A DNA stretch of 16,547 nucleotides from Escherichia phage JLBYU27. A program made the translations under genes and the position numbers. Shown piece by piece: positions 1,464 through 16,547 of the stretch (position 1 is its first letter; each line of letters opens with the position of its first letter). The stretch is from the sequence record OK272475.1. The stretch is one strand, 5' to 3'. The notes under the pieces were generated by a model, which did not search any database, was not told the origin of the DNA, and saw only the letters and a list, made by a program, of their open reading frames with translations.

Positions 1464-1468
1464 CTAAC

Positions 1469-1501
1469 GAAAAAGGGGCCATTACGGCCCCTTAATTATT
1501 T
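1469..1501. terminator. bidirectional rho-independent terminator between convergent genes
   Basis: Stem AAGGGGCC (1473-1480) / GGCCCCTT (1486-1493), loop ATTAC; A-run upstream and AATTATTT downstream on plus strand, so a U-tract follows the hairpin on either strand. Lies between the clamp-like gene stop (1463) and the Rz1-like gene stop (1482). Confidence 0.6.
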
Positions 1502-3019: not shown

Positions 3020-4523
3020 TGTCCGCTACCTCGTCCGGGTCTTCGTCGGTAGATTCTACCGCATCCGGGGACATTTGAGGCAATGGATTCTGATTTCGCA
3101 ATTCGTCTTCCACCTGCTCAACGGTTTGCGAGTCATCAATGACGCCCTGGGCCATCATCCACTTTATAAAGTCCGCCAGACGGACCGTACCGGTCTGCAC
3201 ACCAGCCATCATTGCGGTCATAAGCTGTGCGTCAACCGTGATTTCGGTGTAGAACTTATTCAGCGTTACACGTTGATCTGCGGTGTCGCCAGTGAACAGC
3301 TTGACGATTTGCAGCGCACGGTTGAAAGCCTTCTCAACGTTACCGGCAATCAGCGACAGGATACTGTTATCAGTCTGCGCATCGTAGGCCGCTTCAGTTG
3401 CCGTCTTAGGTGCGGTCCCCTTCTCGACCAGGGCAGCGCCCAGTTTAGCCATTTGCAACTCGCGTCGCTCACACAGCGCAACTGACAGGTTTCTCTCCTC
3501 CGCCTGAAGCAGTTTAGCGTCCATGTTCTGGCCCAGGATAACGCCCTTAGTTGCCCCGAGCGCGATGCCTCCCTTCAGGTTTTTATCAGCCCATGATTGG
3601 GTAAGACCGGTTGCAATGAGAGTAGGTTGACCCACGATGTGCGCAATCTCGGCGACGTCCGCTTCGGCGTTGTAGTGCTTAATGTTGATGGACGCAATAT
3701 CCGCCAGCGGTGCGGCGTCCGGTGTCGCGTTGTTGTCCACCGCGCCACACCAGCAAAATGGCAGTTGAGTAAGCGCATTACCGGCGGCATCCACCAGTGG
3801 CACAAGGTCGGTGCGGGTGAATCCCCGCGGCAAGTCCATTTGCACCTCGGACGTGTCCGCGTTGTAATACCAGCGGCGACCGTGTGCCACACCGTTAATC
3901 ATGCGAAGCTCGGTCCAGATTGTAACTTTGTGGTTTGCGAAGTCGTCCGGGTCTTCGGTGCTGATTTCGTCCGTTTCCTTCAGCACAATTAGCGTATCGA
4001 CGCCGTGGGTCTGCCGCCAGTTGATGATCTGTTCTGCCGTGTACAGGCGTATAAGCGGGCGGTGTGACGCCATTTCAGCGGCTGTCTGCGGCACTACGTT
4101 ACCCAGTTCATCAAAGTTAGCCTGGCGGTCGTAGTCCACCATAAAGCCAGCGCGGCCCGATTGCAGCACTTCCGACATAGCGCCGCGCAGGAGTTGCGCC
4201 AGTGGCATCCCGCTGCCGTCTACGTCATCAATCAGGTCAGCCATTGCCCCGGAAAGGTCCATACTCACCGGTTTGGCGAAGGCGACACCTAACAGTGCAT
4301 TCAGTGTGCGGGCGGTGGCGTTCAGGAAGACAGCACGTTGCTTATATGCCTTATAGCGCGCACGCGATTTCGGGTCAGTGGTGTCGCCGCTGGCTGGGTG
4401 TGGCAGGTACAAGGGGCCGCACGCCTTCACGGCGCGCTCCCCTGCTACACAATCACGGATCATTTTCCACTCTGGCGAGATGCGCGCATAGAGCGGGTGC
4501 TGGTTGTCAACGTTAACGGTCAT
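3003..4523 (-). CDS. phage portal protein (506 aa)
   Basis: ATG at 4523 with AAGGAA RBS 8 nt upstream. 506 aa with a strongly acidic C-terminal tail (DEDPDEVADNGEDN). Sits between terminase large subunit and head morphogenesis protein. Confidence 0.7.
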   Translation of the reverse strand: MTVNVDNQHPLYARISPEWKMIRDCVAGERAVKACGPLYLPHPASGDTTDPKSRARYKAYKQRAVFLNATARTLNALLGVAFAKPVSMDLSGAMADLIDDVDGSGMPLAQLLRGAMSEVLQSGRAGFMVDYDRQANFDELGNVVPQTAAEMASHRPLIRLYTAEQIINWRQTHGVDTLIVLKETDEISTEDPDDFANHKVTIWTELRMINGVAHGRRWYYNADTSEVQMDLPRGFTRTDLVPLVDAAGNALTQLPFCWCGAVDNNATPDAAPLADIASINIKHYNAEADVAEIAHIVGQPTLIATGLTQSWADKNLKGGIALGATKGVILGQNMDAKLLQAEERNLSVALCERRELQMAKLGAALVEKGTAPKTATEAAYDAQTDNSILSLIAGNVEKAFNRALQIVKLFTGDTADQRVTLNKFYTEITVDAQLMTAMMAGVQTGTVRLADFIKWMMAQGVIDDSQTVEQVEDELRNQNPLPQMSPDAVESTDEDPDEVADNGEDN

Positions 4524-4534
4524 GGTTGGTTTCC

Positions 4535-5920
4535 TTAGTAGAAGTCTACGGTTGGAACAACGGCGATCGGTCGAATCACAGGGAACAGGTGCGCAACAGG
4601 ATAGCCCGCGGCGTCGTTCATGTGGTCCACACCGGCAGTTTTATCCGGCTCGCCTTTCTTCAGGTCATAAACCTGCTGTTCCAGACATTTCGCTAGTGTA
4701 GGGCATTTATCCAGGTTGACAAAATACTGGCGCACGCCCTTCGAGTTGCACATCATCGTATTCATCGCGATCAATCGGTCTTTCACTGGCGGGTTAACGC
4801 TGTCATATTCCACATTGAAGCCAGCATCTTCCAGTTGCGCGATATCGGACGACGACGCGTTGACCGTTTTGCGGGATTTTCCGCTGCTATCCGGGTAAAC
4901 GACTACCCTACCGGCGGCACAATGTTCGGGATAGCGCTCCTCGATCGCCTCAATCATAGCCGGGGTGTCAAACAGGTCCACGAATTCATCCACGGCGTGA
5001 ATCTCGTCGCGGAACTCCTTGTTCTCGGTGGTACGCTGCCGTCTTACATACACGACCGCCGCCATTTTCGTGACGTTAAAGTCCATACCGATAATCAGCG
5101 TGTCGTCCGGCTGCACTTCTTCGGTGCTGGCGTTCTCCTCGCGATTAAACATCTTGTACACCGCGCCCGACGTAAGGTTAACAAACAGGCCGTTCAGGTA
5201 CGCATCAATCAGGTTAGCCGGGTACTGACTGCGAAGCGTGTCGATAAAGTCTGCTGGTAAATGGTGGTTGTCTGTGGTCTTCGCCCGGATCAAGCGTTTC
5301 TGGCTGTCCTTCTCCACCTCGAAAATTTGGTACATCGCCCGGTAGCCTTCAGGCGTTGACACGATGACGAACTGGCGGACGAAGCCCGCACGCAGACGAC
5401 CTAGCAGTTTGTGATATGCCGCCAGCGCGACGTCTTGTTTCGTGGTGTCGAACTCGTCGGCAACAATCCACGCGGCGTTGACCCCGATCAGGCGGGTATA
5501 GTTCTCCATTGATTCACAGATCACGCGGGTCCATTTGCCTTTCACCAGAACGCTATAGATCTTGTCCTGCTTGTTGAACTTCCACCGGAAGCCAGCCTCG
5601 TCGAAAGCCTTTTCCAATTCCGGATACATGATTTTAACCAGGAGTGGAATAGTCGGTTCGGTAACGATGCCGTCATGACCTGGGTTCAGTGTGAGAAGCT
5701 GGATTACCTTACGGGCTGCGACCCATGACTTGCCGCCGCCGAAGCCGGAGCACAGGCCGAGGATTTTAGTCTTCGTGTCCCGTAGTAGTTCGACCTGGTG
5801 CGGTAGGCAATCAGGCTGGTAAAGACGCACCGCCTGCGCAACGCGCGTAGGGCGTGGCGGTCGGTTGCGCTTTGCGATCGCGCGCTCCAGTGCGCGGTGT
5901 TCTGCCGCATAGTTACGCAT
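4535..5920 (-). CDS. terL: terminase large subunit (461 aa)
   Basis: Walker A-like LGLCSGFGGGKS and Walker B-like WIVADEFD in the N-terminal ATPase region; C-terminal nuclease-like region (LIIGMDFN ...). Start ATG at 5920 overlaps the terS stop (TAATG). Confidence 0.9.
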   Translation of the reverse strand: MRNYAAEHRALERAIAKRNRPPRPTRVAQAVRLYQPDCLPHQVELLRDTKTKILGLCSGFGGGKSWVAARKVIQLLTLNPGHDGIVTEPTIPLLVKIMYPELEKAFDEAGFRWKFNKQDKIYSVLVKGKWTRVICESMENYTRLIGVNAAWIVADEFDTTKQDVALAAYHKLLGRLRAGFVRQFVIVSTPEGYRAMYQIFEVEKDSQKRLIRAKTTDNHHLPADFIDTLRSQYPANLIDAYLNGLFVNLTSGAVYKMFNREENASTEEVQPDDTLIIGMDFNVTKMAAVVYVRRQRTTENKEFRDEIHAVDEFVDLFDTPAMIEAIEERYPEHCAAGRVVVYPDSSGKSRKTVNASSSDIAQLEDAGFNVEYDSVNPPVKDRLIAMNTMMCNSKGVRQYFVNLDKCPTLAKCLEQQVYDLKKGEPDKTAGVDHMNDAAGYPVAHLFPVIRPIAVVPTVDFY

Positions 5921-6492
5921 TAATCACCCTGACCTTTGCCGGTAGGTTCCACAACGACGTCGCCGTTATCATCTTCGTCGTCATCCAGCGGTACATCGTC
6001 GCGGACGCCGTGGTTTGCTTTAAGCAGGAATGTAGCGAAGCCTGCCGCGATGGTCACGCCGCCAGCTTCCATCAGGAAGGTTTTCTGCAGTTCCATAGCG
6101 TCCGCCATCGCCTCGGCGAACTCCTCATGTGCGCGCGCCCAGCGATACAGGCAAGCTACGCCCACACCGATTTCCGCGGCAAATCGTCCGAAGGTTGGCA
6201 TTTTGTTGCGAGGGATTACTTGCGCAGCGCCTTTATCGGAGTAGTTGACCTGCCAGGCGTCGGCGTCGGCAAAATAGCGGCGAAGCTGGTCGCAGTAAAC
6301 GGATCTGTAGTCAGTAGGGCGCCCACATTTGCCACCTTTACGGCGCTTGCCATACTCGATCTCGGGTCCAAGATTGGTGTGTTCTGTTTGCTCGCCTGGT
6401 TTACGGCGCGGGGTTACTGCTACTCGTCCGTCCAGTTTGGCGCGTCGGCCCTTAACTTTGATTTCTGCCATGATATAAGCCCTTTTGTTCAT
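5920..6492 (-). CDS. terS: terminase small subunit (about 190 aa)
   Basis: Translationally coupled to terL. Contains the HTH-like block TFGRFAAEIGVGVACLYRWARAHEEFAEAMADAMELQKTFL typical of small terminase subunits. Start taken as ATG 6492; ATG 6471 (AAGGG RBS) is an alternative; the ORF-track start at 6570 is a non-ATG codon and less likely. Confidence 0.7.
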   Translation of the reverse strand: MNKRAYIMAEIKVKGRRAKLDGRVAVTPRRKPGEQTEHTNLGPEIEYGKRRKGGKCGRPTDYRSVYCDQLRRYFADADAWQVNYSDKGAAQVIPRNKMPTFGRFAAEIGVGVACLYRWARAHEEFAEAMADAMELQKTFLMEAGGVTIAAGFATFLLKANHGVRDDVPLDDDEDDNGDVVVEPTGKGQGD

Positions 6493-6541
6493 ATGCGCCG
6501 ACCATCGGCAACATAGGAGACGGCCCTGCCATCTAATGGGG

Positions 6542-6575
6542 ATTATAACAGGCGCAAAAAAGCCCACCAAATCGG
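6542..6575 (-). promoter_or_regulatory. candidate promoter for terS overlapping the upstream terminator
   Basis: Perfect -10 TATAAT on minus strand (complement of 6542-6547), 17 bp spacer, weak -35 TTGGTG. Confidence 0.3.
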
Positions 6576-6580
6576 CAGGC
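6556..6580 (-). terminator. putative rho-independent terminator after the metallophosphoesterase gene
   Basis: On minus strand: GCCUGCC-GAUUU-GGUGGGC followed by UUUUUU (stem includes two G.U pairs). Lies 22 nt after the stop at 6602. Confidence 0.4.
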
Positions 6581-6601
6581 TGGGAGGATTACGGGTTGCC
6601 G

Positions 6602-7744
6602 TTACTTCAACATTTCCGGGCTAATGGTTAAGCGCGCTACTTCGCCGTAGTTGGCGCTATAGGTAATGACGTTGGCACTACGACCGGACATCCAACCACC
6701 GCGGCTGGCGTAGGCGTCTTTCGCTGCGAGGGTCCGGTGCTGTTCAACAATCATGTTACGGGATTCTACAATCTTCTGGTGGTGCAAGTGGCCTACGTGC
6801 GCGTAGCTGTACTCACTGGCCCCGAAAGCCTGTCTGAATTTAGAAATCATGACGGTTTCGATAGCGTCAAAGCGCGCTTTATGCCCGTGGTGGAAAAATA
6901 GCGTGGTCTTGCCGTGCTGCACCATTTTGTAGACGTCCGGGGACGTATCCACATCGACGCGCGGCTCGTTCTCGTACAGCGTGTTGAACATCTCAGCAAG
7001 CCAAATCATGCCCGACTCATCATGATTCCCCTGGACGATTAGCAGTTTGACTTTGTGGTGTTTTTGCAGGGCAAGTTCGACGACGTTGCGCACCATGCGA
7101 ATCATGTATCGGACCAGTTTCTGGTATCGGGTGTCCGCGTCCAGTATGTGACCACTTGCCGGAGTGACAGCATCGAGGCTATCAAAGTGGGCCATATCAC
7201 CGAGGATATTAATTACGGCAGTGCCTGCGTCCGGGGCGCGGGCGAAGGCTTCGACAAACCAGCGGTAGAACAGGTCTTCGGCTATCGCCATATCCCAGTC
7301 TTCGCCAGTCTCCTCGCCCCATGCCAACATGCCCAGGTGGAAGTCTGACACGGTGTACAGGTTGAGTAAGTCGAGCGCCTGGATCGGTACTGGCGGGGCG
7401 TTTACTGGCGCTGCCGGTGTGATTTCGCTGTTCATACCCTCGACAACAGCGCGCATAGCTTCGAGTTGGCGCTCCTTGTCCTGCTCAGTGATAACCCACG
7501 ACATGACCTCTTCGCCATTGCCGCGCACCAGGGCCGATACGCGCTTAACGCCGAAGCCATCGGCAACGCGCTGGCGGATTACGGCGTCGTTGCCGTGCCC
7601 AATTCCTTTTTTCGATAGGCGGGCTTTCCGCATGTAGACGTTTCGGAGGGACAAACCGTACTTCTTAGAAATCTCTTTCGATGTAGCGCCGGATTGTAAT
7701 TCAGCAATCAATTGCTCGTCTGTGATTTTAGTTTGCGGGTGCAT
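6602..7744 (-). CDS. HTH domain fused to a calcineurin-like metallophosphoesterase (380 aa)
   Basis: ATG at 7744 with AGGAAG RBS 6 nt upstream. N-terminal HTH-like segment (TSKEISKKYGLSLRNVYMRKARLSKKG). Metallophosphatase signature motifs in order: DFHLG, GDMAHF, GNHDE, HHGHK, GHLHH. Own promoter and flanking terminators. Confidence 0.75.
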   Translation of the reverse strand: MHPQTKITDEQLIAELQSGATSKEISKKYGLSLRNVYMRKARLSKKGIGHGNDAVIRQRVADGFGVKRVSALVRGNGEEVMSWVITEQDKERQLEAMRAVVEGMNSEITPAAPVNAPPVPIQALDLLNLYTVSDFHLGMLAWGEETGEDWDMAIAEDLFYRWFVEAFARAPDAGTAVINILGDMAHFDSLDAVTPASGHILDADTRYQKLVRYMIRMVRNVVELALQKHHKVKLLIVQGNHDESGMIWLAEMFNTLYENEPRVDVDTSPDVYKMVQHGKTTLFFHHGHKARFDAIETVMISKFRQAFGASEYSYAHVGHLHHQKIVESRNMIVEQHRTLAAKDAYASRGGWMSGRSANVITYSANYGEVARLTISPEMLK

Positions 7745-7769
7745 AATTACTTCCTGATTATGGGACCGG

Positions 7770-7805
7770 GGACAATATATCACGGGACTTATCGAGGCGG
7801 GCAAT
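7770..7805 (-). promoter_or_regulatory. extended -10 promoter-like element for the metallophosphoesterase gene
   Basis: Minus strand reads CGTGATATATT (TG-n-TATATT) flanked by GTCCCG / GTCCCCGG motifs; possible weak -35 TTGCCC 19 bp upstream. Confidence 0.35.
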
Positions 7806-7830
7806 AAAAAGCCCGGATAATACCGGGCTT
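7802..7830 (-). terminator. rho-independent terminator ending the lysis operon
   Basis: 8 bp stem AAGCCCGG / CCGGGCTT with 6 nt loop; on minus strand followed by TTTTTATT. Located 7 nt after the stop of the 55-aa ORF. Confidence 0.7.
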
Positions 7831-7836
7831 GATTGT

Positions 7837-8004
7837 TTACGCTGCAGGACCAGATTCTTCCTGCGGTGGTGGGCTTGGCAGCTTCGCATCGAAGACCCCA
7901 GCGTGGCTGATAGTGTCCGCGATGATAGCGCGTGCCCCAGGATCTTCGGTTTTAGCCAGTGCGGCAAGCGCGTCCGCATTATGATCAAGAATACTTTTCA
8001 ACAT
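7837..8004 (-). CDS. hypothetical small protein (55 aa) downstream of endolysin
   Basis: ATG at 8004 with GAGGGGA RBS about 7 nt upstream. No TM segment or lipobox, so not a spanin. The longer ORF-track form (to 8241) would overlap the endolysin gene and is not favoured. Confidence 0.4.
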   Translation of the reverse strand: MLKSILDHNADALAALAKTEDPGARAIIADTISHAGVFDAKLPSPPPQEESGPAA

Positions 8005-8020
8005 ATCGTGTCCCCTCGTA

Positions 8021-8512
8021 TTATGCTGCGTTACGACCGATTCGCTCGGCAACGTCCCACTGCTTACCGTCAAACAACGCCTGTCTGCCGATTGCACGAC
8101 GGACAAGCCCCTTAAGCACTGCCCCGCCTTGCTTGCGGAATTGTGGCAGTGTAGCCCGGACTTTTGCCCAGTCACCCAGGCGGACAGCATCGTCGAAGTC
8201 ACCGGCGACGTCGTCCGGCATGATCGGACCAGGGCCTGCATTGATGACCAGATCCACCAGCGCGTCGAATTGCGCTTGATTAATGCTCGGATGTGCGTAT
8301 TTGTTCACCCAGTCCTCGGCATACGCCACATCGCGCTTGAGCAGTGCCAGCGCTTCCTCGCGGGTAATGCTTCTAGGCGGATTAGTGCCAGTATGACCAT
8401 AACCCCAGGTGTACAGGCCGCGGGCCTGCTCTTTCTTGGTCGCGAAATATGGCACCGGGCTGAAAGCCTCCCAGGCTGCCGTAAATCGTAGACCGTTATC
8501 ACTGAATCGCAT
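8021..8512 (-). CDS. endolysin, phage lysozyme (163 aa)
   Basis: ATG at 8512. Lysozyme-like N-terminal block (LYTWGYGHTG) and C-terminal RRAIGRQALF resembling lambdoid phage lysozymes. Immediately follows holin-like genes. Confidence 0.8.
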   Translation of the reverse strand: MRFSDNGLRFTAAWEAFSPVPYFATKKEQARGLYTWGYGHTGTNPPRSITREEALALLKRDVAYAEDWVNKYAHPSINQAQFDALVDLVINAGPGPIMPDDVAGDFDDAVRLGDWAKVRATLPQFRKQGGAVLKGLVRRAIGRQALFDGKQWDVAERIGRNAA

Positions 8513-8744
8513 GTTTTACCCCATTCAAAACAGCATTACGCAGGGTGCGCAATGCAAACAGCCAGATTAACGCGGTCCAGGTGGTATCAGACACGTCTCC
8601 TGTTTGCAGCAACCCGATAAAACAGACCATTGCCGTTAACAGATACAGCACCCGACCGAAAATGCCATCCTGGACGGACGGCGCATACACGTTAAACAGG
8701 GACGAAGCCCCTATGATAACAAACAACAGGACGGAGATAATCAT
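8499..8744 (-). CDS. small membrane protein in lysis cassette (holin-like / antiholin candidate, 81 aa)
   Basis: ATG at 8744 overlaps the holin stop (ATGA); 2-3 predicted hydrophobic helices; overlaps the endolysin start by 14 nt. Confidence 0.5.
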   Translation of the reverse strand: MIISVLLFVIIGASSLFNVYAPSVQDGIFGRVLYLLTAMVCFIGLLQTGDVSDTTWTALIWLFALRTLRNAVLNGVKHAIQ

Positions 8745-9031
8745 TTTGCACCCCCCGGAAGTCGGAACGACGCAATAGTCCCCCGGATCCGGTCGGCGAT
8801 TGGCATCCAGAAGATGGCAGTTACGAAGCCCAAACCGGCGACAGTGCGCTCGCCAGACAAACCAGACCACTCGGCGATAGCTGGCGCACCAAATATGGCA
8901 CACAGGAAGCCAACCACGATATATAAAACGAAGTTCAACGGCCCTTTCGTTGCCTCGCCATGAATGCGTGCGCCTACGAAGCCACCAGCAAGACACGCAA
9001 TGGCGAATAACCACTCGTTTAGCTTATCCAT
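8741..9031 (-). CDS. holin (96 aa, three hydrophobic segments)
   Basis: ATG at 9031. Three hydrophobic stretches (WLFAIACLAGGFVGA, FVLYIVVGFLCAIFGAPAIA, GLGFVTAIFWMPIA) and a charged C-terminus. First gene of the holin / endolysin cluster. Confidence 0.7.
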   Translation of the reverse strand: MDKLNEWLFAIACLAGGFVGARIHGEATKGPLNFVLYIVVGFLCAIFGAPAIAEWSGLSGERTVAGLGFVTAIFWMPIADRIRGTIASFRLPGGAK

Positions 9032-9083
9032 AAAAAAGTCCCAGTAAGTTTTAGCTCACTGGGACTATATCACGCTTGCATAA
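9032..9083 (-). promoter_or_regulatory. terminator-like hairpin with embedded extended -10 element immediately upstream of holin
   Basis: Perfect 9 bp inverted repeat AGTCCCAGT (9037-9045) / ACTGGGACT (9058-9066) with 12 nt loop; on minus strand followed by TTTTTT then the holin ATG. Minus strand also reads TTATGCAAGCGTGATATAGT (TG-n-TATAGT) overlapping the upstream arm. Confidence 0.45.
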
Positions 9084-9371
9084 TTAATCGAAAATGGACC
9101 ACTTGCCGACGTCTTTCCACGCCCACCCGGATGATCGGACGGCTTCGAATGTTCGACCGCCTATCATATCCCGATACCACAGCCACCACATGCGCAACCT
9201 GGTCGGGTGCTCCGTGATTCCACGGCGCTTGTAGATCTCGAACGTCATGCGGGTAATGCTGGCGGCTTCCACAGCAGGCCATACTACGAACATCAGGACA
9301 CCCAACAGCACCGCGGTAAGCAGACACAGCCCGCAGATCAAACCAAACCAATATATCAAATCGTGTAGCAT
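9084..9371 (-). CDS. hypothetical membrane protein (95 aa, one N-terminal TM segment)
   Basis: ATG at 9371 with GGAAGGGG RBS 8 nt upstream. Hydrophobic N-terminus (IYWFGLICGLCLLTAVLLGVLMFVVW) then a Trp/Arg-rich soluble part. Confidence 0.5.
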   Translation of the reverse strand: MLHDLIYWFGLICGLCLLTAVLLGVLMFVVWPAVEAASITRMTFEIYKRRGITEHPTRLRMWWLWYRDMIGGRTFEAVRSSGWAWKDVGKWSIFD

Positions 9372-9492
9372 CGTATTGCCCCTTCCGGTTTGCCAATATG
9401 GCGCGCCCATGCACGCGCCACGAAGTAATTGCGAAATACCCGACCGCCTATCTCGAAGCGGTTATGCTGAAGCATATCACGGATCGTCGCAC

Positions 9493-9966
9493 TCATTTCA
9501 GAATCACCGAGCGCGGGTCGATGGCTTTCATGCTGCCGTCACGTTCGACCCGGATGAATCCGACGCCGTATTCCTGCGCATGGCGCTGTGCGTTTGTCAC
9601 GGCATCCGCTATGGCGCTCGATCGCTCATGCGGCTGGCGATCCCGAAGGCTGTATTTGCGACCCACTCGCTCGTAATTTACGAGGCCGAAGTAAGTCATA
9701 CCGGCGACGCCATCCTTGCGGGATTGCATACGCAGGCCATGAAGCCCGACATATTCAACGATCCACATACTACCGTCGCGAATATCACGCAGCACATCGC
9801 CGCGCGCAATATCGTGGGTCAGTACGTCAAAGTTTTCATACAGCCCGTCTTTCTTCGCCCACCAAACCCGACTGCCTGCTGCGTTTTGCAGGCGGACGTA
9901 GGAATCCAGGGTCTGTATTGGCGTAAGGATGCACCCGTCATGCTTGCGGCGGAATAGTAATTTCAT
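9493..9966 (-). CDS. hypothetical protein (157 aa), unassigned; candidate late regulator
   Basis: ATG at 9966 with GAGGAGA RBS; start overlaps the stop of the upstream small ORF (ATGA). No motif I can assign. Confidence 0.55.
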   Translation of the reverse strand: MKLLFRRKHDGCILTPIQTLDSYVRLQNAAGSRVWWAKKDGLYENFDVLTHDIARGDVLRDIRDGSMWIVEYVGLHGLRMQSRKDGVAGMTYFGLVNYERVGRKYSLRDRQPHERSSAIADAVTNAQRHAQEYGVGFIRVERDGSMKAIDPRSVILK

Positions 9967-10097
9967 TGCTCTGTCTCCTCGATCTCTTCGATAGTCTTCG
10001 TGTCGCCATCGCATACCGTAGCGATGCCGTTTTGTTTGTAGTCAAGTTCGCACATATGCAGGTAGATAAACTCCTGCGAGAATCCGCCTATCAACAT
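9963..10097 (-). CDS. hypothetical small protein (44 aa), uncertain
   Basis: ATG at 10097 with GGAGA about 9 nt upstream; coupled to the downstream gene. The same frame extends upstream to a GTG at 10268, overlapping the 90-aa ORF in a different frame. Confidence 0.3.
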   Translation of the reverse strand: MLIGGFSQEFIYLHMCELDYKQNGIATVCDGDTKTIEEIEETEQ

Positions 10098-10363
10098 CTG
10101 CTCAGTCTCCAGTGTTTGCCCACCCGCTCGACTGCGGGCTTTCGGCGTAATGTAATACGTATTCCCATTGGTAGCAAGGAAGTCCGCACCCTGAAATCGT
10201 GTTGTGCTGCGAACTGGCGCAAGTAGCGGGTCTGCGTTAATGGCTTCACATCGTCGCGATAGCGCCACAGCACAGAATCGCCCTCAATCGCATTCTTAGC
10301 CCATATTCGTATGCAATGCAGGGTAATGCGCCACGAAAGCTGTTTCGCGCGTCTGCGGTCCAT
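10091..10363 (-). CDS. hypothetical basic protein (90 aa)
   Basis: ATG at 10363 with AAGGGG RBS 6 nt upstream, 10 nt after the stop of the 101-aa gene. Arg/Lys/Trp-rich. Confidence 0.45.
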   Translation of the reverse strand: MDRRRAKQLSWRITLHCIRIWAKNAIEGDSVLWRYRDDVKPLTQTRYLRQFAAQHDFRVRTSLLPMGIRITLRRKPAVERVGKHWRLSRC

Positions 10364-10372
10364 TTTGGCCCC

Positions 10373-10678
10373 TTATTTCGCAAGCTGGGCGAATAGTTCG
10401 CGCTGGGCTTTAATCCGGGCGACGTTTGCCACTGCCGTCTCGCCAATACTGAAGAGATATGCCAGGCGCTCACGGGAGAATGCTTTGGCGTATTCGTGAA
10501 TCGCCACACGCAACGGCTTCAGTTCGTCCAGGCTGGCGTCCATGCGGTAGAGCGCATCCCTAATTGATTGGTGCGCCAGAATAGCAATCTGAAGCGCGGC
10601 GTCTACGCTGCCGTTAAGTGCCTTCGCTTCGTCCAGCTTTGCCACGGCCAGGGTGTAATTCCAGATTAGTGCTTTCAT
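10373..10678 (-). CDS. hypothetical helical protein (101 aa), first gene of the operon upstream of the lysis genes
   Basis: ATG at 10678 with AGAGGA RBS 7 nt upstream, directly downstream of the sigma70-like promoter at 10707-10735. Confidence 0.55.
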   Translation of the reverse strand: MKALIWNYTLAVAKLDEAKALNGSVDAALQIAILAHQSIRDALYRMDASLDELKPLRVAIHEYAKAFSRERLAYLFSIGETAVANVARIKAQRELFAQLAK

Positions 10679-10699
10679 CGTTCAGTCCTCTTGTTGGTG

Positions 10700-10740
10700 T
10701 GCAACCAATATAGCAGTGTGCCAGGCAGGATGCAACCAAT
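10700..10740 (-). promoter_or_regulatory. sigma70-like promoter with extended -10, flanked by two ATATTGGTTGCA direct repeats
   Basis: Minus strand: -35 TTGCAT (10735..10730), 17 bp spacer, TGcTATATT (10715..10707). The 10-mer ATATTGGTTGCA occurs twice (complement of 10701-10712 and 10731-10742). Leader is near-identical to that of the clamp-like gene. Confidence 0.45.
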
Positions 10741-10945
10741 ATTAATCACGCGTATGAAAAAGTTGATCGCTATCTGCTGAAACTGCAAACTGCATTTTTC
10801 ACTTTCCATTCTGCATCGCGCATTGGTTGCCGAGTTCATCGCCGACCGCAATTTGCATCATGTTGCCGTGGATTATGCAATCCCGGATTTTATGCAGTCT
10901 CAGACGAGGGGGGTGACAGACCCCCCGTCTAGTCTGAAAGACTGG

Positions 10946-11210
10946 GGTGCTGTCCCGCTGTCCCGATCGGCTAAACCCCGCGGCAGCACTGGCGGGGACA
11001 GGGTGCTGTCCCGCTTTGTCCCGCCCCTGGTCTGTCCCGCTTTTTGTCCCGCTTAGTTTATGCACGAAAACAGAATAGATATTCACATTTTGGGGGTGGG
11101 ACAGATCGGGACAGCACCCCTGTCCCGTTTTTAATTTATGCAATGTTGGTGGGTAAATATGCAGTTTTTAGAGGTGCGGGATAGAACGGGACAAAACGGG
11201 ACGTCCCGCC
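10946..11210. repeat. iteron-like array of at least 12 copies of TGTCCCGC / GCGGGACA in both orientations
   Basis: Forward copies at about 10951, 10959, 11007, 11017, 11033, 11045, 11121; inverted copies at about 10993, 11097, 11106, 11176, 11186; a perfect 12 bp palindrome CGGGACGTCCCG at 11197-11208. Longer unit GGTGCTGTCCCGC recurs three times. Interspersed AT-rich TTTATGCA motifs. One hairpin CGGGACAG-caccc-CTGTCCCG is followed by TTTTT. Confidence 0.8.
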
Positions 11211-11222
11211 TGTACCGCTTCG

Positions 11223-11547
11223 TTATGCGGGGTTCTGCCGCGCCATTTCATCCAGCGCAACGCGTTCCATTAGCTTGATATCTTTAAACGCACGTTGCGC
11301 GTTTTCGATGCCGTGCATCTTAAATAGCCATTCCAGTACGCCGTAGTCGATGCCGTATGCGCCGCCGAATCCGGTACGCCATTGCGTGGCGCAATCGGTG
11401 AAGACTGCGACTATCTTCGCATTGTCGGGCCATATTGCAACAGGCGGACAAACATCTTCGGGGGCCGCACCCCATAAACTTGCGGCTAAATCTTCGGAGG
11501 GTGGCGGCGGGCCATAAAAGCGTCGCGCCGCCTCAATTAGTTTTTTT
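11223..11547 (-). CDS. -1 frameshift extension of the tail assembly chaperone (GT-like T domain, about 107 codons)
   Basis: A7 slippery run (plus-strand T7 at 11541-11547) lies immediately before the G-gene stop; by hand translation the -1 frame stays open from there to a TAA at 11225..11223 (KKLIEAARRFYGPPPPSEDLAASLWGAAPEDV ... KLMERVALDEMARQNPA). Confidence 0.5.
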
Positions 11548-11899
11548 CACGCAGGCCCATCAGTTCGAGATAGTACGACGTGTGGAACACACCGAACGCG
11601 CGAGGGTAGTTAACCACCAGGCGGCGGACGTTCTCCGCGTTAAATTCATCTGGCAGATTCCAGCCTTCAGCGACGTGCATGATGGCCTCGACCATAACGT
11701 TAAAGCCTTCCGGGTCGTTGTCGTCGTATTCCGACAGCTTGCGCTCCGTGTCCTGCATGGTCTGCGAAAATTCGTCGATCGGGCGGTGGCGTACGGTAAA
11801 CGTCATTTTGCCTGGTTCGTTCTCACCAGGGCGCGGGATCTCAATCGGCAGCTTAAAGGTAGGCTTAGGGTCAAGTGTAAAGAGTGGTGCTTTAGCCAT
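11537..11899 (-). CDS. tail assembly chaperone (lambda G-like, 120 aa)
   Basis: ATG at 11899 with GGAG RBS; acidic small protein immediately downstream of the major tail gene; ends ...GLREKN with the A7 slippery site in the last codons. Confidence 0.6.
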   Translation of the reverse strand: MAKAPLFTLDPKPTFKLPIEIPRPGENEPGKMTFTVRHRPIDEFSQTMQDTERKLSEYDDNDPEGFNVMVEAIMHVAEGWNLPDEFNAENVRRLVVNYPRAFGVFHTSYYLELMGLREKN

Positions 11900-11913
11900 T
11901 GTAGTATTCTCCA

Positions 11914-11938
11914 ATAAAAAAGGGGCCGTGCTGGCCCC
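11914..11938 (-). terminator. rho-independent terminator after the major tail gene
   Basis: Stem GGGGCC / GGCCCC with loop of 5 nt; on minus strand followed by TTTTTTATT. Sits between the major tail stop and the chaperone RBS. Confidence 0.65.
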
Positions 11939-11968
11939 ATATTATCACCCGCTATTTAAGCGACCAAA

Positions 11969-12694
11969 TCAAGACAGCGCCTCGACCAAGTCCTTACGGT
12001 AAATAACCATATCGGACTGCATGGTCAGCGTGGACTCCACCGTCTCCACGTTGTTTACTTCAGACGATGGGATCTTCCGGAAAGACACCTTAGCCGGGTA
12101 AATGCGGATCTCACCTTTGCCGCTTGCCGCTGCCGGGTTAGTGAACTTAATCACAGTGGTTTTCTGTGTGTCGTCCAGGTCTTCCAGAATCGGGCGGATC
12201 GGGTCTTCTTCGTCGTGGGTGAAGGTGTAAGTCTGGACCAACGGGTTTTTCGTGGTGTTCAGACTGATCGCGGTATTCACCTGCAACGGCTGGAAGGTAG
12301 TAGTCTGCTGGTCGCCACCAGACACGGCGACGTTAGTGATATACGGGAAGTCGACAAAGCTCGACACCTTCACCACCTCACCCGGTGTTCCTGTGCTGAA
12401 AGCGCCGGTAGGGTATTTGGTTACGTCTTTAGTATCGAAGCGCGCCAGTGTAACGTCGTTAGTCGCCACTTTACCCACGATGAACGCGCGGTTCAGCGCA
12501 CGGACCCACGGGGTTTTAGTGAACATAACCACGTCACCAACTTTCAGGCCATGAGAAGCCGCGCAGGTGATAACGCAACCTTTCGTAAGACCAGAGATCG
12601 ACGCGGCGGCGTTGGTAGCTGCCGTAACGGCGATACCTTCGCTTAATACGGACCCAATCTGCACGCTGGATCCATTCGGTAACTGGTAGCCCAA
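11969..12694 (-). CDS. major tail protein (lambda V-position, 241 aa)
   Basis: TTG start at 12694 preceded by AGGAGG with 5 nt spacing; an in-frame stop lies just upstream so no ATG alternative exists. Ser/Thr/Val-rich protein followed by a terminator and the G/GT chaperone pair. Confidence 0.6.
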   Translation of the reverse strand: MGYQLPNGSSVQIGSVLSEGIAVTAATNAAASISGLTKGCVITCAASHGLKVGDVVMFTKTPWVRALNRAFIVGKVATNDVTLARFDTKDVTKYPTGAFSTGTPGEVVKVSSFVDFPYITNVAVSGGDQQTTTFQPLQVNTAISLNTTKNPLVQTYTFTHDEEDPIRPILEDLDDTQKTTVIKFTNPAAASGKGEIRIYPAKVSFRKIPSSEVNNVETVESTLTMQSDMVIYRKDLVEALS

Positions 12695-12749
12695 AATATC
12701 CTCCTAAATCAATAGATTACAGTATTTGCAGCCTGAGACATTTCAGGTC

Positions 12750-12778
12750 TTGACTAATCATACCACCAACGGTACTAT
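12750..12778 (+). promoter_or_regulatory. sigma70-like promoter for the plus-strand HNH-like gene
   Basis: -35 TTGACT (12750-12755), 17 bp spacer, -10 TACTAT (12773-12778); GGAG RBS at 12801 and ATG at 12810. Confidence 0.4.
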
Positions 12779-12809
12779 CCACAAAAATCGTTAATCAACT
12801 GGAGCGGAT

Positions 12810-13403
12810 ATGCGTAAAGGCATTCTTTTCGAAGGCATGACATTTAGAGGCGTTACTTTGTTGCGTAAAGGGCCAGGCCTTAAGTGGTTCTGTTCTTGCC
12901 CCGTATGCGGAAGCGAGACACTTCGCACTAACGGCGCACTATTGGATTTTATGCGAGGCGAAACACTGCGCTGGGTATGTACTTGTTTCGGCAAGAAATC
13001 TCGACACGGAATGACGGGGACGCCAACAATGATTACATGGGAAGGTATGATTCAGCGATGCCACAACCCCAATGCGACTAAATACGAAATATATGGCGGT
13101 CGAGGGATTACGGTGTGTGACCGCTGGCGAGTATTCAAGAACTTCCTGGAAGATATGGGCTTGCGGCCCGCCGGAGCAACCCTTGATAGAATCGACAGTA
13201 ACGGCAACTATGAGCCAGGTAATTGCCGGTGGGCATCCCAAAAAGACCAAACCGAAAACACTCGTAGGATTGTCCGAGTTATATATGAGGGGCGTGAATA
13301 TTGTCTTAAGGAAGCGTGCAAGGCGGCGGGCGTGAATTATGACACTATTAGAAAGAAATGGAAAAAAAGCGGGGAAATGTTCCACCGCTTTGAGATGATT
13401 TAA
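12810..13403 (+). CDS. HNH/AP2-family homing-endonuclease-like DNA-binding protein with N-terminal Cys-rich zinc-ribbon-like segment (197 aa)
   Basis: Contains the W..M..RC.NPN...Y..YGGRGI.VCDRW..F..F..DMG ... LDRID..GNYEP.NCRWA motif block that I recall from phage HNH/AP2-type homing endonuclease-like proteins; N-terminal CSCPVCG ... CTCFG. Opposite strand to the flanking tail genes; its stop overlaps the stop of the convergent U-like gene (TTAA). Confidence 0.55.
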   Translation: MRKGILFEGMTFRGVTLLRKGPGLKWFCSCPVCGSETLRTNGALLDFMRGETLRWVCTCFGKKSRHGMTGTPTMITWEGMIQRCHNPNATKYEIYGGRGITVCDRWRVFKNFLEDMGLRPAGATLDRIDSNGNYEPGNCRWASQKDQTENTRRIVRVIYEGREYCLKEACKAAGVNYDTIRKKWKKSGEMFHRFEMI

Positions 13404-13822
13404 GCGCAACAGGTGTAGGGGACTGTAACCACGATGCGGGCGCGATCAACGTCCTCAACCACTGAACTGGTGTATGGCGCGTCCTGAAGCTGGAATGCAG
13501 CGCCGGAAATCTTTACCGTCAACCACTTATCCGACGTAGCGATGGCGTCCGCCAGTTCGCTCGCGTACTGTGTACCCGTGCCTGCAGGGAACACCACGGC
13601 AACCTGATATACGCCTGCATAGATTCTCCCCTTTTGCTGGAGGCCCACAAACTGGGTCGGGGCCGGTAGCAGGTACGGCTCCAGGTAGACACCACTCCCG
13701 TTTGCGTGGTCCCCTTGCACGTTCTCCCAGTTAACCTTGATCGGCCGCGGGCTTGTGCTTAGGCTCGCCGATAACTCTTCTACCACGCTGTTAAGCGCTT
13801 TGCGGATTGCGGTATTGCTCAT
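13400..13822 (-). CDS. putative tail terminator / tail completion protein (lambda U-position, 140 aa)
   Basis: ATG at 13822 overlapping the upstream stop (TAATG); size and position immediately upstream of the major tail gene. Assignment by synteny only. Confidence 0.4.
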   Translation of the reverse strand: MSNTAIRKALNSVVEELSASLSTSPRPIKVNWENVQGDHANGSGVYLEPYLLPAPTQFVGLQQKGRIYAGVYQVAVVFPAGTGTQYASELADAIATSDKWLTVKISGAAFQLQDAPYTSSVVEDVDRARIVVTVPYTCCA

Positions 13823-14415
13823 TATTTCACCTTCGAATTAATTTCTGCCGCTACGACGCGAACAATCCCCGCGGGCGCTTGTTTACTCCAGCCATACTCA
13901 AGTCGCTGCGCGTATGGCACGTTGTTAGTAAACCAGATCGACCCGTATTCACTGGAATCGTAATGCGCCAGCACTTCACGCCCTGCGGCTAATGTTGCCG
14001 TTCCGGCCTTATCCACGCGGTCAATAGCGCCAACAGCCGGGCGGTCGAACGTAACCTGCCAGTTTCCCCGGAAGCGTCCGCCGGTGTAATTCTTCGCAGC
14101 CCAGCCACGCTGGCGGAACGTGACGTTGCCGTTTTTAGTCTTGAATGATACCAGCACGCTGGCGTGCTTTTTCTGCCCGCGCTTCAGTTTGCCACCATTC
14201 TTGCGACGCTGCGCGGCGTTCACCTTGTTCGCGTGCTGGCGGGCCAGCGCGTAAGCCCTGTTAATTTTCCACCGGCGAGGGTCGCCCACCGGGGAGATCT
14301 CAATAAGGCGTCCGAGTATTTGCATACCGTACGCCCGCACCGCCTTGTCGTTGTTCTCCTTCGTCTTATCCACCCACGTTGCAATAGTGGCGGCGAATGA
14401 GTAGACCTCAGCCAC
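13822..14415 (-). CDS. putative tail completion / head-tail component (lambda Z-position, 197 aa)
   Basis: GTG start at 14415 with AAGGGG RBS 6 nt upstream. Basic protein (RRKNGGKLKRGQKK). Assignment by size and synteny. Confidence 0.4.
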   Translation of the reverse strand: MAEVYSFAATIATWVDKTKENNDKAVRAYGMQILGRLIEISPVGDPRRWKINRAYALARQHANKVNAAQRRKNGGKLKRGQKKHASVLVSFKTKNGNVTFRQRGWAAKNYTGGRFRGNWQVTFDRPAVGAIDRVDKAGTATLAAGREVLAHYDSSEYGSIWFTNNVPYAQRLEYGWSKQAPAGIVRVVAAEINSKVK

Positions 14416-14416
14416 G

Positions 14417-14770
14417 TTAACCCCTTAGCTGTAGTTGAAACAGCATGGTTGTTCCAGCCGGTTGCAGTGGGTTTGGATTGATGACCCTGTAGTCTATATT
14501 GTTCAGGCTAACCAAATCCCCGACCTGCACCGGCTTTACTGCCTGGCACAAAAACTTCACATCCCCGGCAACGATACGCGTCCCGTCGATCTCGCTTGGC
14601 TTGTACTCCTCGCGAAGTCCGATGACGTCAAACGAGGTCGGAGGGATGACAACTTCGTCGCCGTCTACGCGGTCGACTGCACCAGGACGCGTCACCGTAG
14701 CCGTCATTCCGAACTTTTTAATCAGCGGATTGACTTTCCGCTTCAAGCCAGCGTAATTAAAGCCCGCCAT
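14417..14770 (-). CDS. putative head-tail joining protein (lambda FII-position, 117 aa)
   Basis: ATG at 14770 with AGGAGG 6 nt upstream; same length as lambda FII (117 aa) and similar overall architecture. Assignment by size and synteny. Confidence 0.45.
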   Translation of the reverse strand: MAGFNYAGLKRKVNPLIKKFGMTATVTRPGAVDRVDGDEVVIPPTSFDVIGLREEYKPSEIDGTRIVAGDVKFLCQAVKPVQVGDLVSLNNIDYRVINPNPLQPAGTTMLFQLQLRG

Positions 14771-14891
14771 TATCATCCTCCTGTACCGGTGGTTCCGGTT
14801 CTGGCGCTGGTTCCGGTTCTGGCGCTGGTTCCGGTTCTGGTTGGCGTTTAGTATTTGCGGCGATAATAGCCGCCAGTAATGCAGGATTCAT
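14757..14891 (-). CDS. small Pro/Glu-repeat protein (44 aa) encoded over an 18-bp tandem repeat
   Basis: ATG at 14891 with GGGGGTGA RBS; MNPALLAAIIAANTKRQ followed by PEPEPAPEPEPAPEPEPP. Coding status uncertain. Confidence 0.35.
   Translation of the reverse strand: MNPALLAAIIAANTKRQPEPEPAPEPEPAPEPEPPVQEDDNGGL
14786..14848. repeat. tandem repeat, about 2.8 copies of an 18-bp unit GGTTCCGGTTCTGGCGCT
   Basis: Read directly at 14791-14843; the unit is itself built from three related hexamers; encodes (PEPEPA)n on the minus strand. Confidence 0.8.
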
Positions 14892-14892
14892 A

Positions 14893-15393
14893 TCACCCCC
14901 GGAATACGTCAAAATTACCCGCTGCGTTGCCGTCTGCGTCAATCCAGTGTCCCAGCAAGCCATCCCACCACGGGAACGAAACACCGCTACCAATCGTCGC
15001 AGGGTCATATTCCATCGTGATCGGGCCTACCGTTTCGCGGATAGTCTCCTTTCCATCGCCGATCGGAGAAATATCAACATCGTCAGCCACCAGCATTGCC
15101 AGCCGGTAAACGGCTTGTTCAACGGCAACGGGGATTGATGCGAAGTCTACAATCTGCCCAGCAGGTACTACTGCCAAATCTTCAGTAAGCGTGTTCAGTA
15201 CCGGCTTACCGTCTGATGGGTAGTTGATGCGGGGCCATGCGTCAATTCCGGTCGGGTCCGCCGGTTCGCCGATCCAGGCGATGCCGTTGAGGAAATCATT
15301 AACTATGGTAAGGTGTCGCGTTGCATCGCCCTGCGTAATTTCAACGCCTCGCGCCGCGGCATAAACAACGAAGGTTTGCGGGTCGCCATACAT
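14893..15393 (-). CDS. putative head completion / head-tail connector protein (lambda FI-position, 166 aa)
   Basis: ATG at 15393 with AGGAG RBS 8 nt upstream; first gene after the capsid-gene terminator. Function by position only. Confidence 0.4.
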   Translation of the reverse strand: MYGDPQTFVVYAAARGVEITQGDATRHLTIVNDFLNGIAWIGEPADPTGIDAWPRINYPSDGKPVLNTLTEDLAVVPAGQIVDFASIPVAVEQAVYRLAMLVADDVDISPIGDGKETIRETVGPITMEYDPATIGSGVSFPWWDGLLGHWIDADGNAAGNFDVFRG

Positions 15394-15407
15394 TTTATTT
15401 GCTCCTA

Positions 15408-15435
15408 TAAAAAAAGGCGGGCTTATGCCCGCCCC
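15408..15435 (-). terminator. rho-independent terminator after the putative major capsid gene
   Basis: Stem GGCGGGC / GCCCGCC with loop TTAT; on minus strand followed by TTTTTTT. 18 nt after the stop at 15453. Confidence 0.7.
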
Positions 15436-15452
15436 TTTGGGATTTGCGCCGA

Positions 15453-16547
15453 TCAGGACGTTGTGGTCGCAGTCAGCGTAACCAGTACGCCAGCCGTTTC
15501 CTTGATGTTACGGGTCGGCACGGTCTGCGCAGTCTGTGTCTTACGACGGCCTTTAGTGTCGCTATCGCTGCCAACATCCTGAACGGTTGCCGGTGCGTTA
15601 TCTACCTGGCCCTGGTCCAGTTCCCAGTTTGCGGAAGTGGTAATATCGCTCAGTTTGAACGAGCACACACCTTCGATCGGGGTACGGGCGTCTGCCTTCA
15701 GACGGTAGCCTTTAACCGCCACGTTGAAGTCGAACTCGCCCTGCCACCAGCGCTCGATGTTCTCGTTACCGCCTTTTTCCTGCGCCAGCATATCGAGGCC
15801 GTTGGTGGTAACTGCAACCGCGCCAGGGACCAGACCCAGCATGTTACCGGCACCCATAGCACCGGCAGCGGCATCGGAGATAATGAAACGACGGCCCAGG
15901 CCATCGCCCATTACCTGAAGATCGCCGATTGCGAATACCTGCTCGGCAGACGGGAGCGCCTGGTATGCAATGAAGTTTGCCCAGGTAACGCCGTCCATAA
16001 ACCAGGATTTAATCAAAGACGCCTGATCGCCGAACTTAGAAGCCGCCAGCGGGAAGTCCGCCAGGGTCGGGAAGGTACGACCGCCAACGCCGTCAACGCG
16101 CGCCGGTTGGGTGTATTTTGCCGCTGGGTTGCTCTCGATCGCCGCTTTACTTGCACCGATACCGGCCTTCAGGTAATGCAGCATAATCGCTTGAGTAGCC
16201 TGTGCCGCAATCTCAGCCGCAACGCTGTTAACGTTGGTTTCGATCTTAGCCATCATAGCCTTAGTGATTGCTACCGGACCCACTTTCGCGGACAGGTTGA
16301 CGGAGTTGGTCAGCATACGCGCCAGCACTTTTGCGGTCGCCGGAGTACCGACAGGGGCATAGGCGTTACGGTCGGTAACGAGGTTGGCGATCAATCCTAC
16401 GGACATTTTTTCTACAACATCCTTCAGCACTTCACCAGTGCCGAGAACAACAGCGCCGTTAGCGGCAGCGTTGAACACGTTCAGGTTATCGGGGATCATT
16501 TGCGTAACCGCGGTGACGAGTTTACGCTGGAACACTGTTAAAGACAT
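15453..16547 (-). CDS. putative major capsid protein (364 aa)
   Basis: ATG exactly at the window edge (16547..16545). Ala/Gly/Val-rich structural-type protein followed by a strong terminator and then head-tail joining genes, the usual position of a major capsid gene. Not recognized at family level. Confidence 0.45.
   Translation of the reverse strand: MSLTVFQRKLVTAVTQMIPDNLNVFNAAANGAVVLGTGEVLKDVVEKMSVGLIANLVTDRNAYAPVGTPATAKVLARMLTNSVNLSAKVGPVAITKAMMAKIETNVNSVAAEIAAQATQAIMLHYLKAGIGASKAAIESNPAAKYTQPARVDGVGGRTFPTLADFPLAASKFGDQASLIKSWFMDGVTWANFIAYQALPSAEQVFAIGDLQVMGDGLGRRFIISDAAAGAMGAGNMLGLVPGAVAVTTNGLDMLAQEKGGNENIERWWQGEFDFNVAVKGYRLKADARTPIEGVCSFKLSDITTSANWELDQGQVDNAPATVQDVGSDSDTKGRRKTQTAQTVPTRNIKETAGVLVTLTATTTS

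Follow-up and report, generated by a model that had tools for sequence, protein, structure and literature searches.

Among described replication systems, the origins of the staphylococcal pathogenicity islands (SaPIs) are one of the closest parallels to the subject of this report, an iteron-like array at positions 10946 to 11222 of a 16,547-nucleotide (nt) sequence from Escherichia phage JLBYU27 (record OK272475.1). This whole stretch of DNA is referred to below as the window. SaPI origins comprise 6 to 12 iterons of 5 to 6 nt located immediately downstream of rep; two or more of them, oppositely oriented, flank an AT-rich center on either side, and the iterons are bound by a winged helix at the C terminus of the helicase (PMC9371898). 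The Rep or Pri-Rep protein is a self-loading helicase, and a primase is fused to it in some members (PMC9371898).

Several of these features have counterparts in the array and in the 750-amino-acid (aa) primase-helicase of the genus Dhillonvirus, to which the phage belongs. The iterons are short (15 sites when one mismatch is tolerated, with 11 hexamers matching exactly within 257 bp), and the two AT-rich islands are flanked by oppositely oriented sites, with four on the left and two on the right of one island (11053 to 11092) and one on the left and three on the right of the other (11128 to 11172). The primase is fused to the helicase. A C-terminal winged helix is predicted (residues 666 to 737), with a predicted local distance difference test (pLDDT) score of 73 to 84 and no sequence match to a known family. 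A location directly downstream of the helicase gene is true of the other Dhillonvirus array and of the single copies of relatives, whereas the copy in the window lies 16.5 kb from the primase-helicase gene, between the chaperone and tape-measure genes. Further differences are that the SaPI motor is of the AAA+/SF3 type while the motor here is a RecA fold resembling RSF1010 RepA (Pfam family AAA_25), that the cores are 7 to 8 bp rather than 5 to 6 bp, and that there are two arrays per genome.

A second system for comparison is that of phage P4, whose alpha protein and ori and crr regions were reportedly described in work from 1987, 1993, and 2002. P4 alpha is a multifunctional primase-helicase with a C-terminal winged-helix origin-binding domain and an SF3 motor, and octamer iterons are present in both ori and crr. 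P4 shares with the Dhillonvirus phages the presence of one iteron in two separate cis regions several kilobases apart (20549 to 20815 and 37346 to 37447 in phage B2) as well as a primase-helicase with a C-terminal winged helix, which is predicted in the present case. The domain families differ, however (an SF3 motor in alpha and AAA_25 here), and alpha is not known to be related; the iteron sequences differ as well, and the two regions are 4.5 kb apart in P4 but 16.5 kb apart in these phages.

The oriV of the IncQ plasmid RSF1010 involves the RepA helicase, the RepB′ primase, and the RepC initiator, and its iterons of about 20 bp are bound by the separate RepC protein. The Dhillonvirus helicase domain is structurally closest to RepA (1g8y; template modeling [TM] score of 0.67 and root mean square deviation of 4.5). 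Both regions combine iterons with an AT-rich segment and hairpins, there being one conserved hairpin next to the sites in the present case. In contrast to the ~20-bp iterons of IncQ, the unit here is 7 to 8 bp with a spacing of 8 to 12 bp; moreover, the IncQ primase and helicase are separate proteins and the IncQ ssi hairpins are functionally defined. Among the replication proteins that are shared, none resembling RepC was noted.

Results

A dense array of sites in both orientations

An initial annotation of the window, made from the sequence alone, had described a dense array of a GC-rich motif in both orientations and had offered three interpretations: an iteron-type replication origin, a binding-site array for a phage regulator, or a packaging or recombination site at a module junction. 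The exact hexamer GTCCCG was counted on both strands, and degenerate sites were counted as CGGGACA with no more than one mismatch. The 16,547-bp window contained 15 exact copies of GTCCCG, 11 of which fell within the 257 bp from 10952 to 11208. In 300 dinucleotide shuffles of the window, the densest 270-bp span averaged 1.8 copies and never exceeded 4, compared to the 11 observed, while local shuffling of positions 10940 to 11225 (286 bp) gave an expectation of 0.24 ± 0.48 and a maximum of 3. Comparison with shuffled sequence, which the annotation had suggested as a check, thus bore out the array. Degenerate counting detected 15 sites, with nine on the minus strand (starts at 10951, 10959, 11007, 11017, 11033, 11045, 11121, 11202, and 11211) and six on the plus strand (starts at 10994, 11097, 11107, 11177, 11187, and 11197). 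Adjacent sites were separated by 8, 10, 12, 10, 10, and 10 bp, and mostly by 8 to 12 bp, in keeping with the proposal that some are spaced about one helical turn apart.

Other elements that had been described were also present. The longer recurring unit, GGTGCTGTCCCG, was located at 10946 and 11002, with an inverted copy at 11107. The perfect 12-bp palindrome, CGGGACGTCCCG (11197 to 11208), consists of two overlapping inverted sites followed by TTTTGT on the minus strand and is labeled in the HK578 record as a rho-independent terminator after the chaperone gene. AT-rich island 2 (TTAGTTTATGCACGAAAACAGAATAGATATTCACATTTT; 11053 to 11092) contains two DnaA-box-like matches at 8 of 9 positions, with TGTGAATAT on the minus strand; the four sites on its left and the two on its right are directed away from the island, and a homologous GTGAATAGTTATGCA island was present in Cornellvirus and in phage phiEap-2. 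AT-rich island 1 (TTTTTAATTTATGCAATGTTGGTGGGTAAATATGCAGTTTTTAGAGG; 11128 to 11172) has one site on the left (11121) and three in the opposite orientation on the right (11177, 11187, and 11197). TTATGCA is present four times (10873, 10890, 11058, and 11136), as had been described, and a shorter TATGCA is located at 11158. In the orientation of the transcribed strand, this motif reads TGCATAA; it was detected four to seven times per tail-module array in all 23 relatives and recurs immediately upstream of the tape-measure start codon in normal genomes, and it could be a −10-like element, a priming site, or a host-factor site.

Not every element fared as well. The DnaA-box-like matches to TTATNCACA, located at 11058 and 11079, were marginal (0.36 expected; P of ~0.05), and conservation of these matches was not found among the 23 relatives. 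GTCCC elements were indeed present near the phosphoesterase and holin genes, as the annotation had stated, but those on the phosphoesterase side (7762 to 7789) were replaced by GTCCAC in B2 and HK578 and that on the holin side (9058 to 9065) is the stem of a terminator-like hairpin; their identification with the array element was, therefore, rejected. No credible open reading frame (ORF) was found in the 544 bp from 10679 to 11222, where the stretch runs into the stop codon of the frameshift ORF of the tail chaperone. This gap, the reported noncoding region of about 550 bp, is chimeric (see below).

Two conserved arrays in Dhillonvirus genomes

The window was ~92% identical to virulent Escherichia coli siphophages of the genus Dhillonvirus (HK578, SO-1, and B2). 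The phage is a virulent Dhillonvirus of the HK578/SO-1 type and not, as had been assumed, a prophage. Normal genomes contain one array just 3′ of the primase-helicase gene and another between the tail-chaperone (G/GT-type) and tape-measure genes, and these two locations, 16.5 kb apart, were found in all complete relatives. In B2, 17 of the 21 copies of CGGGACA were in the arrays (11 in 20549 to 20815 and 6 in 37346 to 37447), with only 4 elsewhere. The copy following the primase-helicase gene begins ~100 to 200 bp from the stop codon in B2, SO-1, and 12 further loci.

Conservation was examined in 23 distinct tail-module copies. The GGGAC/GTCCC core columns were 97.2% conserved compared to 90.4% for the remaining array columns, and none of 370 circular shifts was as extreme. 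A similar trend was apparent for the other copy (95.8% versus 90.6%). The comparison with relatives advocated in the initial annotation, therefore, indicated that the array is retained and that its cores are conserved above the spacers. As sites are present on both strands, recognition is likely to occur at the DNA level.

The GenBank record of SO-1 (GQ502199) contains two repeat_region features, region A, which separates the chaperone gene from the tape-measure gene, and region B, which follows the helicase/primase gene, with a note describing "direct, inverted and palindromic repeat sequences" that have similarity to each other. The array in the window is homologous to region A. The array is, hence, real, conserved, and previously annotated as a repeat.

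Array cores and the C terminus of the primase-helicase

Every examined relative with a primase-helicase of at least 44% identity had a noncoding gap of 290 to 900 bp located 3′ of the gene and containing a lineage-specific repeat. The cores found outside Dhillonvirus (CGGACAA, GGGGAGA, and TTGCGAG) belonged to relatives with primase-helicases of 44 to 49% identity. Enterobacter phage phiEap-2, with the core CGGACAA, retained the full architecture: the GTGAATAGTTATGCA island is followed by five sites in forward orientation and one inverted, a similar spacer separates these from three more forward sites, and a hairpin and then CTGCATAA come next. The GGGGAGA core was observed in the Cornellvirus phage VSiA and in Salmonella phages SaI_NFG_5577, STM-ZS, and TS6. 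A search of the whole VSiA genome placed 6 of 11 occurrences of GGGGAGA in its one array, and in this phage neither a gap nor an array separates the tape-measure gene from the chaperone gene. A TTGCGAG/TCGCAA core was present in Klebsiella phage VLCpiS11a and two metagenomic relatives (loci L060 and L061), while a locus whose primase-helicase was 69% identical to that of B2 (L059) had the core GCGGGACA and the domain motif GFSKSAI..KGGT.T.AI. As an array 3′ of the primase-helicase gene is also found in Cornellvirus-like relatives, this position looks ancestral.

Phages sharing an array core also shared a motif in the C-terminal domain of the primase-helicase. The proteins of VSiA and phiEap-2 were 76% identical overall but 29 to 53% identical in the last ~110 residues, while those of B2 and SO-1, which have a common core, were 87 to 100% identical in the same region. 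Sequence comparison thus suggests that the array core tracks the C-terminal ~70 to 110 residues of the protein. An AlphaFold model of the primase-helicase was generated from an alignment of 28 sequences (mean pLDDT of 71). Residues 666 to 737 were modeled as a helix-strand-helix-helix-beta-hairpin (pLDDT of 73 to 84) with an acidic tail thereafter, a predicted winged-helix topology. A fold search with the full-length model returned the RecA-fold motor only, with RSF1010 RepA first, at the values given above, and RecA-fold proteins next; in Pfam, the protein matched AAA_25 only. A PDB profile match to BurrH was disregarded because it was the sum of 20 individually insignificant repeat matches. 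A small helix-turn-helix (HTH) protein encoded upstream in Dhillonviruses is, unlike the primase-helicase, not common to VSiA and is, therefore, a poorer candidate for the protein that binds the array.

Organization of the window

The window was not collinear with its relatives. Positions 1 to 11064 corresponded to 25489 to 37460 of B2 and positions 10890 to 16547 to 20490 to 25488 of B2; the alignments spanning the repeat were of 9618 to 11064 with B2 36015 to 37460 and of 10890 to 12697 with B2 20490 to 22295. The last base of the window adjoins the first in B2, and, when the window is read as its reverse complement, its first codon is the ATG of the major head gene. Missing from it are the modules for replication and the distal tail, ~27.7 kb of the normal 44-kb genome. 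As the window is permuted and its ends are contiguous in B2, it behaves as a re-oriented circle of 16,547 bp with a closing junction in the array region. All of the 20-mers of 10965 to 11222 were detected in the relatives' chaperone/tape-measure copies and none in the other copy, while the hairpin and the sequence leftward of it were of the type found downstream of the primase-helicase gene. Mapping of 20-mers against 13 and 23 relatives thus placed a single switch in a crossover zone at 10938 to 10965, and the join falls within the first two sites beside the shared hairpin. The core common to both array copies (175 bp; 10890 to 11064) consists of the hairpin, six sites in the same orientation, one inverted site, and TTTATGCA. 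The two copies of a given genome are identical over stretches as long as 44 bp, which is enough for either a de Bruijn assembler or homologous recombination to circularize the 16.5-kb interval. The "module junction" of the initial annotation is, therefore, an artifactual or recombinant join of two loci that lie 16.5 kb from each other in all complete relatives.

All 10 long public contigs with an identical chaperone had the normal order of chaperone, array, and tape measure, and many other public assemblies with the same chaperone protein stop at 10 to 20 kb. The exact junction pattern had no match in viral, metagenome, or genome contigs, and BLAST searches detected no such junction in E. coli genomes or plasmids. 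An assembly artifact is more likely than a real circle. A subgenomic circle generated by recombination between the arrays during infection, replicated in trans by wild-type phage and packaged as multimers, would be a natural defective-interfering mini-phage; with a single hybrid array, the cos region, and the genes for terminase, head, and lysis, it would be devoid of genes for replication and the distal tail. We consider this scenario highly unlikely.

Features of the array region and neighboring elements

Read on the minus strand from the chaperone stop codon, the array comprises the inverted and palindromic sites with TTTTGT, AT island 1, an inverted site pair, AT island 2, four forward sites, one inverted site, a conserved spacer, two forward sites, and a 50-nt hairpin. 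The stop codon (11223 to 11225) belongs to the 3′ part of the tail assembly chaperone frameshift ORF (GT type, DUF1799; 11223 to 11536, minus strand) and abuts the array. The inverted site pair, CGGGACAGCACCCCTGTCCCG, and the T run following it (11107 to 11137, plus strand) are terminator-like for plus-strand (antisense) transcription only and are also found in B2; this was the one antisense terminator-like site detected in the terminator part of a scan in which no match to consensus sigma-70 promoters reached the threshold in any array copy, including the promoter of the 101-aa gene described below. The long imperfect hairpin, CAGTCTCAGACGAGGGGGG-loop-CCCCCCGTCTAGTCTGAAAGACTG (10895 to 10944), is conserved at the end of both array copies, with RNA folding energies of −28 kcal/mol for the minus (transcribed) strand and −31 kcal/mol for the plus strand and no U tract on either strand. 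Hairpins of other sequence occupy the equivalent position in phiEap-2 and VSiA.

The flank of the other array copy (10679 to 10889, minus strand) is conserved and noncoding. It contains an extended −10 promoter for the 101-aa gene, read from the sequence as a −35 element, TTGCAT (10735 to 10730), a TG (10715 to 10714), and a −10 element, TATATT (10712 to 10707). It also contains GCAACCAAT/ATTGGTTGC sites starting at 10701, 10732, and 10822. This second repeat family was located at 10701 to 10709, 10732 to 10740, and 10822 to 10830 (inverted) and at 919, with two copies overlapping the −35 and −10/+1 positions of the promoter. Complete relatives have two or three more copies between the primase-helicase stop codon and the AT island, and counterparts were observed as a GCAACCAAC array in Edwardsiella phage eiAU and as GTTGGCTG in Cornellvirus and phiEap-2. 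A different DNA-binding protein of the phage could use this family as its operator. The ~150 nt of noncoding sequence from the hairpin to the promoter (10740 to 10889) are well conserved, in blocks that recur in 13 relatives, and might represent a small RNA or else a leader with a regulatory role.

In eiAU, a 900-bp noncoding gap follows the helicase/primase gene (locus L053, 3226 to 4120) and contains a long inverted repeat with arms of ~30 nt (CGCCCCGGGGGCACTTATTGATTTATAAGG) that encloses the GCAACCAAC repeats and TTATGCA islands. The sequence TGTGAATAGT belongs to the AT island that is conserved in Dhillonvirus, Cornellvirus, and phiEap-2. Bas74 (locus L048, 4920 to 4990) and Kagunavirus (locus L050, 3970 to 4040; second copy, CATGAATAGT), which both lack an iteron array, contain it twice; there, the pair lies in a promoter region beside a divergent unannotated open frame, by its look a putative Cro/CI-type HTH gene.

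Two further elements were observed elsewhere in the window. The tail chaperone G gene has a TAA (11539 to 11537) directly after a slippery A7 run (11547 to 11541, minus strand), and the DUF1799 frame downstream of G is without its own start codon in this phage; the G/GT pair fits a programmed −1 frameshift, as judged from the reading frames. At 9029 to 9072 (minus strand), an extended −10 element, TGaTATAGT, overlaps a terminator-like hairpin, GTCCCAGT...ACTGGGAC with T6, which ends one base before the holin ATG; the stretch as a whole is 97 to 99% conserved in B2, SO-1, and HK578. This overlap of a terminator and a promoter may control expression of the lysis genes.

Discussion

We propose that the array is an iteron-type nucleoprotein assembly site, either a replication origin or an origin-like loading site for the phage primase-helicase, and we judge this proposal to have about an even chance of being correct. 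Of the three interpretations offered in the initial annotation, the iteron-type origin is the best supported, on the grounds of the architecture, the adjacency to the helicase-primase gene in relatives, and the covariation of core and C-terminal domain, although this evidence is comparative. The proposal of an origin-type loading site derives from the match with the SaPIs, namely, oppositely oriented iterons around an AT-rich center, an array after the helicase gene, a predicted C-terminal winged helix, and a fused primase. The short 7- to 8-bp sites, (G)CGGGACA, which recur at intervals of about one helical turn in opposed orientations around AT-rich islands, would be bound by the phage's own 750-aa primase-helicase, which would combine a RecA-fold motor like that of RSF1010 RepA with the predicted C-terminal winged helix. 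Binding on either side of an AT island would lead to helicase loading, melting, and priming, as for Rep and ori of the staphylococcal SaPIs. A first array would serve this function 3′ of the primase-helicase gene, and a second, more symmetrical one, the copy present in the window, would do so in the tail module. We infer both the identity of the binding protein and the firing of replication at the site. In this proposed role, the array is best read as a new addition to the origins built around initiator helicases.

A number of observations weigh against this proposal. The second motif family (ATTGGTTGC and variants) populates the same regions, so that the assignment of protein to motif is not unique, and in eiAU this second family is the dominant repeat. 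The copy in the window is inside a long late (tail) operon, an odd place for an origin. GC-skew extremes occur at strand-switch points and not at the arrays; these extremes follow gene orientation and are uninformative. The initial annotation had asked which protein covaries with the array, and the C-terminal domain of the primase-helicase does track the core, but phylogeny confounds this covariation, which is seen in only about five or six lineages. C termini diverge rapidly for other reasons too. Neither Pfam nor PDB yielded a sequence match to the C-terminal domain. In Jerseyvirus, Kagunavirus, and Bas74, proteins of the same family have a similar C terminus, and there is no array 3′ of the gene. 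Finally, no paper discussing or testing these repeat regions was found in the literature.

The rival that survives best is that the sites are bound by a lineage-specific transcription factor and form part of a switch or insulator cassette (weak terminator, sites, hairpin, and promoter) setting middle or late expression downstream, that is, of the small genes, lysis genes, and head module after one copy and of the tape-measure and tail genes after the other. Both copies are indeed at operon-internal boundaries on the transcribed strand, and the copy after the chaperone gene opens with the weak terminator-like palindrome. Promoters are also suitably placed: in normal genomes, an extended −10 element (TGATACAAT) is located 36 nt past the hairpin, just upstream of the tape-measure gene, and a conserved extended −10 promoter follows the other copy. 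A lineage-specific core would, moreover, be equally expected for a regulator and its operators. The regulator-site interpretation of the initial annotation is, hence, a live one that fits the positions of both copies, but 13 to 15 sites over 270 bp, arranged symmetrically around AT islands, are atypical for an activator or a repressor. VSiA-like relatives have no array between the chaperone and tape-measure genes, indicating that regulation of the tail genes does not need one. Nor does the core recur at other promoters, as 17 of 21 CGGGACA copies in B2 and 6 of 11 GGGGAGA copies in VSiA are inside the arrays, and the promoter-proximal GTCCC elements of the window are not conserved. No covarying candidate regulator was found, the upstream HTH protein not being common to relatives with the same architecture. 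We regard regulation by such a factor as possible but doubtful.

An unlikely explanation is that the arrays are a recombinational or structural repeat cassette, a duplicated intergenic element that enables module exchange or the formation of subgenomic circles and is neither an origin nor an operator. The promoter-stem-loop cassettes of T4-type phages are comparable duplicated intergenic elements. Such a role would account for two direct copies in the same genome that match exactly over as many as 44 consecutive bp, for a window that is exactly the crossover product of the two copies, and for the many public assemblies with the same chaperone protein that end at 10 to 20 kb. Conservation of a 5-bp core above the spacers, however, together with lineage-specific cores in a retained architecture, points to recognition by a sequence-specific protein, and the junction was in no other public collection searched.

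Small subunits of terminases often bind arrays of short repeats. A terminase recognition site (cosB or pac) was, nonetheless, rejected as an explanation and is extremely improbable, as was the packaging site of the initial annotation. The 5′ cos end of Dhillonvirus EE09 is reported to be the 10-nt sequence ATCTTAAGGG (PMC10673088). Its nearest match in the window, ATCTAATGGG, differs at two positions and is located at 6531 to 6540, at a distance of 4.4 kb from the array and a short way upstream of the small terminase gene; this is the probable cos site, by its similarity to that of EE09. Furthermore, there are two array copies per genome, and one adjoins a replication gene in all relatives. 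Equally improbable is an RNA-level element (a structured noncoding RNA, processing site, or protein sponge) formed by GGGACA repeats in a read-through transcript, since, although the region is transcribed within a long operon, the conserved hairpin is stable and lacks a U tract, and the inverted repeats could fold, the sites are in both orientations and conservation falls on the short core rather than on paired columns; no Rfam 15 family reached its gathering score, the best subthreshold hairpin-type matches having 29 bits versus 100 and 23 versus 120.

The 175-bp two-copy repeat breaks or misjoins short-read assemblies of these phages, and it would be wrong to take such a 16.5-kb "circular" contig for a complete genome, a plasmid, or a satellite. 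Were the subgenomic circle real, the arrays would double as origins and as recombination hot spots, used by a self-loading primase-helicase with a RecA fold (SF4 type).

The phages of Dhillonvirus and of part of Guernseyvirinae are widely isolated for therapy and are used in studies of defense systems; to our knowledge, the control of their replication has not been studied. If the array is an iteron-type origin, it would provide an origin and initiator pair for Dhillonvirus and part of Guernseyvirinae. The small, naturally occurring set of winged-helix variants paired with their iterons (CGGGACA, CGGACAA, GGGGAGA, and TTGCGAG) could then show how helicase-primases of the RepA type recognize their origins.

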